A DNA stretch of 41,996 nucleotides, from positions 1 to 41,996 of the forward strand of contig CAZBBK010000051.1 of NCBI GenBank assembly GCA_964490075.1, read 5' to 3'. The notes under the pieces were generated by a model. That model was not told the origin of the DNA and did no database searches. It was given only the letters and a program-made list of their open reading frames with translations. This stretch comes from an uncultured Gemmatimonadota bacterium (GTDB lineage: Bacteria > GCA-2686955). Both the position numbers and the translations under genes were made by a program. Positions 2,292 through 38,322 of the stretch are shown in pieces (within the stretch, counting starts at the first letter, position 1; every line of letters begins with the position of its first letter).

Positions 2292-3304
2292 CCCTCGTGA
2301 CCCTGGCCCGCCCCCGTGCGCTCTTGGCGGCGCTCGTCTGTGTCTCGCCCGCCGCGGCGTCCCCCCCGTCCGGACTGGACGATGATGTCTCGAGCGTGGT
2401 GATCAACGAGATCATGTACAACCCCTCCGACTCGCTCGGCGCCGACGACGACTACCAGTGGGTGGAGCTCTACAACACCTCGGCACTGGCCGTCGATCTC
2501 CAGGGCTGGAGCCTGAACGACGCGGCACTCTCGGGCACGATCGGGGCGCACGACTACGCCATCGTGGCGCGCCAGGATCTCTCCGACCCCGATCAGGACG
2601 GCGCCTACTTCAGCGCCTTCTACAACCCTCAGCACGACTACCAGATCGAGCATCCGATCATCGACCTGGAGGGAGTCGACCTCGGCTTGGGGGACAGCGA
2701 CTTCGACCTGGTGCTGCGCGATGCCGAGGGGACGGCGATCGACTCCACCGGCTTCCACCCGGCGCCGGGCGGCGACGGCGACGGCTCCACCCTGGAGCGC
2801 CTGGTGGCGCCTTTCGTCGGCGACGTGGCCAACTTCGAGCCCAGCGCGCCACCCGAGCGCTTCGGCTCGCCGGAGGGTCAGAACTCGGTCTCGCCGGTGG
2901 TGATCGACGTGCTGCTGCCCGACGGCCCTTTCGAGCCGGGCGAGCTGGTATTGATCTCCGAGACGATCCTCAACCGCACCTCTCAGCCGCAGCCGATCTC
3001 GCTGATGCGCGCCCTGGAGCTCCCGGAGGACTTGGTCCTGCCGATCGACGTCCCGGAGCTGCCGGACTGGGTCGTGCTGCCGCCCGACTTCGAGCTCACG
3101 CTCGAGGCCGAGGTGGAGGTGCCGGAGCTCCTCCCCGAAGGCGGCTATGCCTACCAGGCAGCCTTCGGACGCGGCATCCAGTCGGCCGGATCGGAGTGGG
3201 AGGAGTTCATCGTGCGCACCAACGACCAGTCTTCGGAGCGCCGTCGGGTTCACAATTTTGTGAACTCCTGCGCGGCTTCGCCCAGAGCGATCCCGGCAGA
3301 CTGA
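2288..3304 (+). CDS. Secreted lamin-tail-domain (LTD) protein with shared C-terminal beta-sandwich domain
   Basis: The ATG overlaps the upstream stop (ATGA). Signal peptide, LTD signature VVINEIMYNP...QWVELYNTS...VDLQGWSL, acidic composition. Confidence 0.85.
   Translation: MTLVTLARPRALLAALVCVSPAAASPPSGLDDDVSSVVINEIMYNPSDSLGADDDYQWVELYNTSALAVDLQGWSLNDAALSGTIGAHDYAIVARQDLSDPDQDGAYFSAFYNPQHDYQIEHPIIDLEGVDLGLGDSDFDLVLRDAEGTAIDSTGFHPAPGGDGDGSTLERLVAPFVGDVANFEPSAPPERFGSPEGQNSVSPVVIDVLLPDGPFEPGELVLISETILNRTSQPQPISLMRALELPEDLVLPIDVPELPDWVVLPPDFELTLEAEVEVPELLPEGGYAYQAAFGRGIQSAGSEWEEFIVRTNDQSSERRRVHNFVNSCAASPRAIPAD
3248..3265. promoter_or_regulatory. AT-rich palindrome, candidate upstream activator sequence for a sigma54 activator
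   Basis: Perfect inverted repeat GTTCACAA-TT-TTGTGAAC about 100 bp upstream of a -24/-12 element, conspicuous against the GC-rich background. Confidence 0.6.
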
Positions 3305-3364
3305 GCCCCCGCGGCACGAAACCGGCGAAACGCCGGGATTCCTGCCCCGCCCGACCCCCGTGCC

Positions 3365-3380
3365 CGGCACGCATCCTGCA
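3365..3380 (+). promoter_or_regulatory. Sigma54 (-24/-12) promoter
   Basis: CGGCACGCATCCTGCA matches TGGCACG-N4-TTGC(A/T) with exact GG-N10-GC spacing, and a bEBP gene lies two genes upstream. Confidence 0.7.
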
Positions 3381-3628
3381 GTCCCTTCGGGCAGGCCTCC
3401 GGCACGGATTCACCGCGCCGGGCTCGGCCCACGGCTTCCCGCCCACGCGCTCAACCCTCTGCACGGCGTGGGTGGGAGGTCGTCGGTCCGGGGTCTCGAT
3501 GGACGAGTCGCCCGGGCCCGCAACCTGGTCGGCACCAGCCGTCGCGGGGGCGCGGTGACAGGCCGCGCCGAAGCGCCGGTGGGTCGACCCGCCGCCCCTT
3601 GCCGGGGCGGAGGAACCAGGACAGAACC

Positions 3629-4009
3629 ATGCTCCGTTCCATCATCGCCGCCGCCGCGGCCGCCTTCGCCTTCGCCGCCCACGCCCAGTGCGTTTCCTGC
3701 GGCATCGAGCTCAGCGCCGACTGTGTCGCCCCGGGCGGGCAGCTCGAGATCGACGTCTTCGTGACCAACGGCTGCGACCTGCCGGTCGAGGTCGAGGCCT
3801 CGCTGATCGCCCACGCCCCCGAGGGCGAGGAGTACGTGATCGAGGCGCGCACCTTCGTGCTGCCGCCGATCGAGGCCTCCGCCAGCTTCCTGCTCACCGT
3901 GCCCGAGGACATCGCCCGCGGCGACTACGACCTCGAGGTGACGATCCTCGAAGGCGACCACGTGAGCACCTGCGCCGCAGCAGTGACGGTCTCGGACGAC
4001 TGCGGTTGA
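3629..4009 (+). CDS. Small secreted Cys-containing beta-sandwich protein (signal peptide plus a stand-alone copy of the shared C-terminal domain)
   Basis: GGAGG/AGGA upstream of the ATG at 3629. Signal peptide MLRSIIAAAAAAFAFAAHA, motif VPEDIARGDY, six Cys. Confidence 0.8.
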   Translation: MLRSIIAAAAAAFAFAAHAQCVSCGIELSADCVAPGGQLEIDVFVTNGCDLPVEVEASLIAHAPEGEEYVIEARTFVLPPIEASASFLLTVPEDIARGDYDLEVTILEGDHVSTCAAAVTVSDDCG

Positions 4010-37165: not shown

Positions 37166-37188
37166 GGGCCCACGGACTCCGACGAGAA

Positions 37189-37227
37189 CGCGCCCGCAAA
37201 CCCCGATTCACGGGTTCCGCGGGCGCG
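37189..37227. terminator. Stem-loop between convergent genes, possible bidirectional terminator
   Basis: CGCGCCCGC...GCGGGCGCG 9-bp stem with an inner AACCC/GGGTT pairing. No strong U tract. Confidence 0.45.
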
Positions 37228-37251
37228 CCCTGAGGCGGAGTCGGGGTCTAG

Positions 37252-38322
37252 CTACGGATTGACCGTCACCGACACCTGCTGAATATCCCAGGTCTCGACC
37301 CCGTGGTCGCCGGTCTTCACCTGCACCTGGTAGTCGCCCAAAGGAGCGCTACCCGGAACCCCCAGGCTCACCGGACCGGTCACCGTGCCGCCCCCCGGAA
37401 GCGTCACTTCCAGCGGACCCGCGACCGGGTTGATCGGAGCCGGCGCGCCGTTCGGCAGCAGCACGTCGACCCACACGTCGCCGGTGGTCGGAGTCCCCTC
37501 GTTGTTGATCACCTTGACGCTCATGTCGAAGCTGCCGCCCAGCGACACTTCGACGTCGTGCTCCAGGATCAAGGTCGAGAGCGCCGGGCCGACCACCCTC
37601 TGGCGCATCCAGCCGTGCTTGGCGTCGAATTCCATCACCACCGTGTTGCCGGCCATGACGTTCAGCGTCAGATTCCACGAGTCGCCGGGATCGAAGCTCC
37701 AGCCGTTGGGTCCGAACTTGATCGAGCCGGACCAGTCGCCCTGGCGCACCACCTTCCACAGGTCGCCGAGCATGTCGCTGGGCGCCACGAACTGGAAAGT
37801 ATGGACCCCGTCGCCGGCCACCGCGTCGCCGTCCAGGCCGTCGTCGTGCATCGCGGTGACGGTGCTGGTGGGAATCCACTCACCGGCCTCGCCGGCCTCG
37901 TCCTGGAAAGAGCCGACCGCGACCCAGGTGTGGCTGTTCGCCAGGTCGTCGTCGGACAGGCTCCAGCCTCCTTGCGGGTGCCAGCCCTCGTCGGAGCGGT
38001 CGTTGAGGTCGAGATAGAAAACGACGATGTCGGGGGCGCCGCCCAGATCGAGCTGCATGTTTTGGCCGTTGGCGTCGCCGTACCAGGTGCTGTCGCCGTC
38101 GGCGATCTTGTAGTCGATGAGTCCTGAGTCGGGATCGGCGAAGTTGACCAGGGCGCTAAAGATGTTGTCGCCGGCGATCTCGTCCGGCGCCAGGCCGTCG
38201 TCGGCCATGGCGGCCCCATCTTGCGGAACCCAGTTGCCAAGCTCGTCGGTCGACCCGGTGACGTACCAGGCGCCGAGCGACGCGCCGAGAGTGAGAGCGA
38301 GCGCTGCACTGCTGAGCATCAT
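37252..38322 (-). CDS. Secreted acidic protein with two DDGxxxDxxAGD (choice-of-anchor X-like, CBM-like) modules and shared C-terminal domain
   Basis: Signal peptide. WYVTGS...GNWVP...MADDGLAPDEIAGDNIFS and WVAVGSFQ...GEWIP...MHDDGLDGDAVAGDGVHT. C-terminus VPGSAPLGDY...VSVTVNP. Confidence 0.8.
   Translation of the reverse strand: MMLSSAALALTLGASLGAWYVTGSTDELGNWVPQDGAAMADDGLAPDEIAGDNIFSALVNFADPDSGLIDYKIADGDSTWYGDANGQNMQLDLGGAPDIVVFYLDLNDRSDEGWHPQGGWSLSDDDLANSHTWVAVGSFQDEAGEAGEWIPTSTVTAMHDDGLDGDAVAGDGVHTFQFVAPSDMLGDLWKVVRQGDWSGSIKFGPNGWSFDPGDSWNLTLNVMAGNTVVMEFDAKHGWMRQRVVGPALSTLILEHDVEVSLGGSFDMSVKVINNEGTPTTGDVWVDVLLPNGAPAPINPVAGPLEVTLPGGGTVTGPVSLGVPGSAPLGDYQVQVKTGDHGVETWDIQQVSVTVNP

Follow-up and report, generated by a model that had tools for sequence, protein, structure and literature searches.

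Shared C-terminal domains are a means by which bacteria address exported proteins. The stretch of DNA analysed here, called the window in what follows, is a complete contig of 41,996 bp (CAZBBK010000051.1, or C51) from the 5.70-Mb genome of an uncultured Gemmatimonadota bacterium (136 contigs, roughly 70 % GC, 95 % complete). An earlier note on this window had drawn attention to four proteins, all thought to carry signal peptides, which are unrelated except for a common C-terminal domain, and had proposed that this domain might serve a lineage-specific sorting or anchoring system. All four open reading frames (ORFs) exist where they had been placed, as seen from their translations. On sequence grounds the proposal of a common domain is partly confirmed, three of the four tails forming one family to which the fourth could not be assigned. 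This family, of ~107 residues, is named the B domain. Throughout, ORFs are stop-to-stop frames of at least 50 amino acids (aa), of which the genome contains 55,911, and gene calls are approximations based on third-position GC content (GC3). The genes and segments in question are listed below, with scores from Pfam, NCBIfam and profile hidden Markov models (HMMs).

2288..3304, + strand: gene of the lamin-tail-domain (LTD) protein (translation; Pfam LTD 57.4 bits).
2894..3217, + strand: B domain of the LTD protein (profile A2 E 3.7e-21; independent HMM E 7.5e-8).
3629..4009, + strand: gene of a small Cys-rich protein of 126 aa, consisting of a signal peptide and a B domain only (translation).
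about 3692..3994, + strand: B domain of the small protein (profile A2 E 1.1e-22; independent HMM E 1.3e-16).
31010..32758, - strand: gene of a purple-acid-phosphatase-like metallophosphoesterase of 582 aa (Pfam Metallophos and Pur_ac_phosph_N; 100 % identical to a 582-aa database protein).
31037..31408, - strand: C-terminal segment of the phosphatase, the claimed fourth copy (orphan, not a B domain by sequence).
37252..38322, - strand: gene of a choice-of-anchor-X / X25-like protein, the DDG-repeat protein (NCBIfam choice_anch_X 51 bits; Pfam X25_BaPul_like 30.4 bits).
37255..37581, - strand: B domain of the DDG-repeat protein (profile A2 E 1.6e-33; independent HMM E 5.2e-24).

The LTD protein probably starts at the ATG at position 2288, from which its translation runs into a signal peptide. 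The DDG protein comprises two choice-of-anchor-X stretches plus an X25-like segment (NCBIfam, Pfam) and then its B domain, which occupies residues 291-398 of a 399-aa frame; this is the top-scoring copy in the genome and the one used for the structural model discussed below. The assertion that the tails end their proteins is therefore right for the DDG protein, where a single residue is left before the stop codon, but not for the LTD protein, in which 28 further residues follow the domain. Signal peptides can be recognised by simple inspection in the LTD protein, the small protein and the phosphatase; the N-terminus of the DDG protein is hydrophobic but has no K/R.

The pairwise resemblance of the four tails is weak and, as far as sequence goes, suggestive at best. 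Their identities range from 20 to 27 %, a direct alignment of all four has identities of 20-21 % and nine invariant columns, and single BLASTP comparisons return E-values of 2.3e-4 (LTD/DDG), 2.6e-4 (small/DDG), 0.02 (LTD/small), 0.029 (phosphatase/DDG) and, for the other two pairs, 0.094 and 0.29. A first HMM made from the four segments and iterated over the 55,911 frames converged at 104 ORFs, and the phosphatase tail fell out during this iteration over the genome. Because circularity was to be avoided, the HMM was rebuilt from 76 C-terminal copies located on other contigs, none of them from the window. Searched against the full set of ORFs, this independent HMM recovers the DDG protein (86.0 bits, E 5.2e-24), the small protein (62.2 bits, E 1.3e-16) and the LTD protein (34.1 bits, E 7.5e-8); the metallophosphoesterase obtains 3.7 bits (E 210), which amounts to no match. 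Moreover, phmmer finds no paralogue of the phosphatase tail in the genome, and among 5.8 billion proteins it has no relative except itself. The LTD, small and DDG tails thus constitute one family, of which the phosphatase tail is not shown to be a member; by sequence the latter is not a B domain (E 210, no relatives).

The phosphatase tail is an observation in its own right. It corresponds to a 138-aa C-terminal extension (31010-31426, - strand) with no detectable relative, and the homologues of the enzyme in four sister genomes are devoid of it, their alignment stopping at about residue 338 of 583. Folded as a single sequence by AlphaFold2 (AF2), the segment is predicted to be all-beta with a pLDDT of 53, i.e., unreliable.

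For the genome census a full-length HMM of 79 C-terminal copies was used. It detects 116 B domains in 113 ORFs, a count which rests, like the other copy numbers given here, on HMMs trained on this genome, and which bears out the expectation that the domain would be found many times. The architecture is simple, with one copy in 110 of the 113 ORFs and two copies in only 3. The number of residues separating the end of the domain from the stop codon is distributed as follows.

0-3 residues: 55 B copies.
4-8 residues: 10 B copies.
9-20 residues: 15 B copies.
21-50 residues: 5 B copies.
More than 50 residues: 31 B copies.

Hence 65 of the 116 copies end at most 8 aa from the stop and 80 at most 20 aa from it, while uniform placement would put 3.0 copies within the 8-aa limit (maximum 10 in 1000 trials). 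The strong C-terminal bias that had been anticipated is equally visible in the sister genomes, where 28 of the 32 B copies at the 30 best loci end within 8 aa of the stop. Motifs that recur in the family are V.pGg close to its beginning, a strand terminating in N, a D-a-W strand, LppG and VP..aP.G.Y; the domain closes with a strand f.v.V, after which there are usually 0-3 residues. Genome-wide, 21 pairs of B ORFs lie within 1.5 kb of each other or overlap as frames, which suggests local duplication.

The expansion of the B domain is restricted to one phylum. In the five species genomes that sample this phylum (the present one and four sisters) matches at E<=1e-8 number 75, 40, 44, 51 and at least 141, so that all five possess the family. 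In comparison, a search of 26 genomes of other phyla produced one marginal hit in a single genome (E 7e-4), and five named genomes of other phyla gave 0-6 weak hits each (best 1.5e-8), mostly in very long ORFs. The lineage specificity put forward in the earlier note is thus borne out. Among the papers listed by full-text searches of the literature, none was found to describe the B domain as a terminal tag.

The proteins that end in a B domain are indeed unrelated from one to the next, as had been supposed from the window. A Pfam scan of the 79 B-tailed ORFs identifies Beta_helix in 11, Peptidase_S8 in 8, LTD in 8, BNR_2 in 6, Sortilin-Vps10 in 5, Peptidase_M14 in 4, InhA-like MAM in 4, AhpC-TSA (redoxins) in 4, Chlam_PMP in 3, CotH in 2 and FG-GAP in 2, together with single propellers and peptidases. 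Cargo of these types is of the kind usual for surface or secreted proteins. Several carriers consist of a signal peptide and a B domain and nothing else. With a strict signal-peptide heuristic 41 of 80 terminal-B ORFs are positive versus 173 of 600 control genes, a weakly discriminating result, and with a relaxed rule 61 of 80 versus 207 of 400. The statement that nearly all B carriers have signal peptides is unsupported, these heuristics being too unspecific.

Modelled by AF2 on a 23-row alignment, the B domain is an 8-strand beta-sandwich with a pLDDT of 97.6. The best matches of this model in the PDB, as found by Foldseek, are the FnIII domains of RbmA, the N-terminal domain of GH123, CARDB (2kl6) and complement MG domains. 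Structurally closest is the RbmA FnIII domain of Vibrio cholerae (PDB 4kkp, 4kkq and 4be6; Foldseek E 2.9e-5 to 2e-4, TM up to 0.75), although identity is just 16-20 %. RbmA is a secreted biofilm-matrix scaffold according to the titles of the PDB entries. At the sequence level, no Pfam or NCBIfam model covers the four tails of the window, and NCBIfam has no hit in 23 B copies, including with the model TIGR04131 for the type-B C-terminal domain (CTD) belonging to type IX secretion systems (T9SS). Pfam's RbmA-like_FnIII matches 2 of the 23 copies with E >= 0.016. NPCBM_assoc reaches 15.9-17.7 bits on two window tails, below the Pfam cut-off of 24.4, and is present below threshold in 12 of the 23 copies (best E 2.7e-4; member 1 of the alignment scores 17.3 bits).

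Among 1.84 billion representatives world-wide, 18,476 match the B profile at E<=1e-3 and 4,221 do so at E<=1e-10 (top E 2.6e-127). Ten of the best of these were scanned with Pfam, and in five of them NPCBM_assoc, CARDB and/or MG2 exceed their cut-offs, at or beside the residues matched by B. Leads from the ESM Atlas all stayed below 0.9 and comprise unnamed clusters, RbmA-like and CARDB. The two families CARDB (PF07705) and NPCBM_assoc (NEW3, PF10633), of the E-set type, resemble the B domain in fold class and in the VP..aP.G.Y strand motif; the B copies scanned stay below the Pfam gathering cut-off, yet homology at the profile level and a common fold are both observed. However, CARDB and NPCBM_assoc are typically internal tandem repeats, whereas the B domain occurs here in single copy, at the C-terminus, with an expansion confined to one phylum. 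What is special to the B domain is therefore its lineage-specific, single-copy, terminal use and not its fold or its superfamily.

The idea of an uncharacterised secretion system finds no support in the genome: none was found, no neighbour family is conserved beside the B genes, and the T9SS is a normal one with roughly 50 substrates that bear a type-A CTD. No secretion locus lies in the 41,996-bp window. Elsewhere in the genome, SprA (522 bits) and PorU (519 bits) are both present, the latter with a PorV-like gene directly downstream. There are four PorV-like outer-membrane proteins (C74:2043-8408, C8:101322-102311, C59:34798-36423 and C11:85138-87129), of which the one on C8 alone exceeds Pfam's cut-off for PorV (35.8 bits). 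PorP-like sequences are limited to one weak match of 32.9 bits versus a cut-off of 90.55. About 50 ORFs end in a type-A CTD, with PNPFNP near its start and mostly ...LLK at its end, and matches to this CTD number 32-45 per genome in all five genomes of the phylum, each of which has both the B domain and the T9SS.

The type-A CTD (TIGR04183 or Por_Secre_tail, PF18962; FlgD_ig, PF13860, also catches it) is among the known systems closest to the B domain. Both are beta-sandwiches of about 100 aa that occur once per protein, at the very C-terminal end of Sec-exported, typically extracellular and otherwise unrelated cargo, with tens of carriers per genome, in a genome possessing SprA, PorU and PorV, and both are interchangeable among paralogues. 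They also differ: the type-A CTD has 7 strands according to PMC12618676, against 8 in the model of the B domain; type-A CTDs here mostly end in ...LLK while the B domain lacks a conserved terminal residue; and a third of the B copies are internal. As to the type-B CTD, the B domain neither matches its model nor has a PorP/SprF-like shuttle gene beside its cargo genes.

The two kinds of tail behave as alternatives. The B domain and the type-A CTD occur together in only 3 ORFs, the CTD being terminal in 2 of these, although 26 of the 79 B-tailed ORFs have a cargo paralogue among 18 of the 50 type-A-CTD ORFs, in 57 pairs at E<=1e-6. The best such pair consists of two BNR-type proteins, 63 % identical over 535 aa, which diverge exactly at the junction, two B domains following in the first and a type-A CTD in the second. 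This exchange among paralogues is a 'choice of anchor' pattern. It may be mentioned that the DDG protein of the window itself carries an NCBIfam choice-of-anchor domain. The PorV-like gene on C59 is located directly upstream of a gene for type-A-CTD cargo, the closest paralogue of which has B domains instead.

Could the B domain be a localisation tag that decides the destination of the exported protein? This is the reading that we favour, with an even chance of being correct. It is made plausible by the terminal single-copy architecture, by the near-exclusion with the CTD, by the swaps among paralogues and by the proteins made of the domain only, as well as by the ability of the T9SS to accept several CTD families, which PMC12618676 describes together with recognition by PorV of structure rather than sequence; according to the same source, good descriptions exist for no more than two families of T9SS tags. 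In this lineage the B domain is mostly a single-copy end-piece at the C-terminus of Sec-exported, unrelated cargo and takes the position that the type-A CTD holds in paralogues. Two ways in which such a tag might operate can be envisaged, each of them unlikely when taken singly. It could represent a third, phylum-specific class of T9SS export signal, unrelated in sequence to both type A and type B and recruited from a CARDB-like immunoglobulin-like (Ig) domain, in which case one of the four PorV-like paralogues would read the tag as its shuttle. A prediction of the complex between the PorU-adjacent PorV-like protein and a B domain scored 0.00 and, being without controls, is neither support nor counter-evidence. 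Alternatively, and with a similarly low probability, the domain may retain or anchor its carriers through binding to some common component of the envelope or matrix, by analogy with dockerin or SLH domains. Dockerin, SLH and pre-peptidase C-terminal (PPC) domains each provide many unrelated exported enzymes with one module and a common fate, and the B domain is like them in being one shared module on diverse exported cargo. No kinship with them in sequence or fold was found, nor was a search aimed at it made. Unlike in dockerin systems, however, no cohesin-like partner or scaffold with many receptors is seen for the B domain, and only 3 ORFs have two copies.

Several observations weigh against a tag. 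Within the CARDB/NPCBM_assoc (NEW3) superfamily the B domain represents a distant branch that is uncurated, and its fold is generic, so that the objection of a generic Ig-like domain, raised in the earlier note itself, holds in part. Independence of position is likewise partly found, in the form of 36 internal copies among 116, of three ORFs with a type-A CTD and of tandem arrays in other organisms. In this genome B copies occur upstream of LTD, beta-helix repeats or type-A CTDs; the 28 ORFs whose last B copy is internal continue with LTD, beta-helix repeat units, a type-A T9SS CTD (the three ORFs) or unassigned tails, and the ORFs that hold B upstream of or with a type-A CTD indicate that its use is not strictly positional. 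In a quickly built tree the terminal copies are intermingled with the internal ones (21 changes of label versus a mean of 31 and a minimum of 24 in 200 shuffles) and are therefore not a separate subfamily; the notion of a specialised terminal clade was rejected on this quick tree only. There is no conserved C-terminal residue in the domain (P, E, Q or D is last in 45 of 65, not fixed). Among the best 150 representatives world-wide, 146 re-match, of which 127 contain at least four tandem copies, only 3 end in the domain, and 5 carry the domain upstream of a type-A CTD. Neither the four tails nor the 23 copies have a hit to Por_Secre_tail, FlgD_ig or TIGR04183 at E<=1, the 50 matches that Foldseek lists include none labelled as a T9SS CTD, and hhalign gives a probability of 3.1 % between the B profile and the profile of this genome's own type-A CTD, from which it follows that the B domain is not a divergent type-A CTD. 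GldM is without a match in this genome, as in every control genome by the same search. No specific partner gene is seen among the 226 ORFs that flank 69 B genes, two genes to either side, the recurrent neighbours being large signal-transduction families, most members of which have 13-86 homologues in the genome. Finally, five secretin-domain genes (on C97, C29, C90, C36 and C9; 79.5-174 bits) imply that other outer-membrane routes, of the type II secretion system (T2SS), type IV pilus or Tad-like kind, coexist with the T9SS.

Much of this would be accounted for if the B domain were an ordinary accessory Ig module of the CARDB/NEW3 type, acting as a stabiliser, a spacer or a binder of substrate or ligand, and amplified in the lineage by duplication and shuffling. 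Terminal position would then merely be the mode in which the cassette is added, and the proteins would reach their destinations via the periplasm, the T2SS or unknown routes. We give this explanation slightly less than an even chance. It is in keeping with the sub-threshold NPCBM_assoc matches in 12 of 23 copies, with the best of the 18,476 representatives, which pass NPCBM_assoc, CARDB or MG2 at the same residues and are internal tandem arrays, with the 36 internal copies and the 3 ORFs that also have a type-A CTD, and with the failure of terminal copies to form a clade; the lack of partner machinery beside B genes, the five secretins and the local duplication suggested by the 21 adjacent pairs point the same way. 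Nevertheless, generic Ig modules are usually tandem and free in position, while here 110 of 113 ORFs are single-copy and 65 of 116 copies are near the stop where 3 are expected. Nor would one predict that B is almost never combined with a T9SS CTD though 26 of 79 carriers have CTD paralogues, or that small carriers with only a signal peptide and a B domain exist. A more radical possibility is that there is no real family at all, but only a coincidental likeness of Pro/Gly/Val-rich beta segments in a high-GC genome. Pairwise E-values of just 2e-4 to 0.3 would suit such an effect of chance and composition, and for the phosphatase tail it is in effect correct. It is nevertheless extremely improbable in view of the independent HMM (E 5e-24, 1e-16 and 7.5e-8 for three tails), the pLDDT of 97.6 reached from a 23-row alignment and the hundreds of B matches in four other genomes, and is already refuted where three of the four tails are concerned.

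A shared C-terminal module on exported proteins is a known kind of arrangement. A deep-branching, uncultured phylum places one uncurated Ig-like domain on the tail of its largest class of exported proteins. The matches listed for ClpB come from many phyla and reach at most 62 % identity, records from the same or very near genomes possibly being absent from that list. Were the B domain a localisation tag, the predicted surface or secreted proteome would be more than doubled, and the phylum would offer a natural experiment in the origin of secretion signals. If it were in addition a third class of T9SS signal, it would carry about 80 to more than 140 substrates per genome compared with 32-45 for the canonical CTD, and would show the T9SS to be able to derive new cargo tags from ordinary Ig-like modules, a protein's final destination being set by the tag it bears. 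As a mere passenger, the domain would still be of some use, since a family profile would provide an annotation for about 100 tails per genome that are now 'hypothetical' and the case would caution against the assumption that any Ig domain shared at the C-terminus is a signal for sorting.

Some further observations concern the arrangement of B genes. The LTD gene and the small gene of the window form a two-gene unit, LTD plus B followed by signal peptide plus B, which is duplicated on C18 (58836-59810 and 60098-60487). Between the two units, identity is 52 % over 279 aa for the LTD proteins and 33 % over 111 aa for the small ones; C12:94323-94736 encodes a third paralogue of the small protein, 33 % identical. 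In six large ORFs (C29:47346-50528, C48:4000-7179, C43:41189-44464, C12:10950-14648, C107:1620-6077 and C12:68340-71549) a B domain is followed by a common tail of ~147 aa, 42-67 % identical among them. Two of these tails were scanned and both are lamin-tail domains, an order of B then LTD that is the reverse of that in the LTD protein of the window.

The genes that lie between the four ORFs have unrelated housekeeping and regulatory functions. They encode a sigma-54 activator, a DUF885 protein, a CDF transporter, radical-SAM enzymes, a ParA-like ATPase, a MATE protein, a TonB-dependent receptor, a hybrid kinase, PP2C, ClpB, GT2 and PMT_2 proteins, a desaturase, an aldo-keto reductase and HflX. 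Two frames, at 21009-22994 (+ strand, 661 aa) and 30014-31024 (+ strand, 336 aa), are coding-like by GC3 and have no Pfam match at E<=1e-4. At 9668-10783 (+ strand), the ParA/MinD-like ATPase (AAA_31, CbiA) carries at its C-terminus a fused module for glycogen binding (AMPK1_CBM / CBM_48), which is an unusual pairing.

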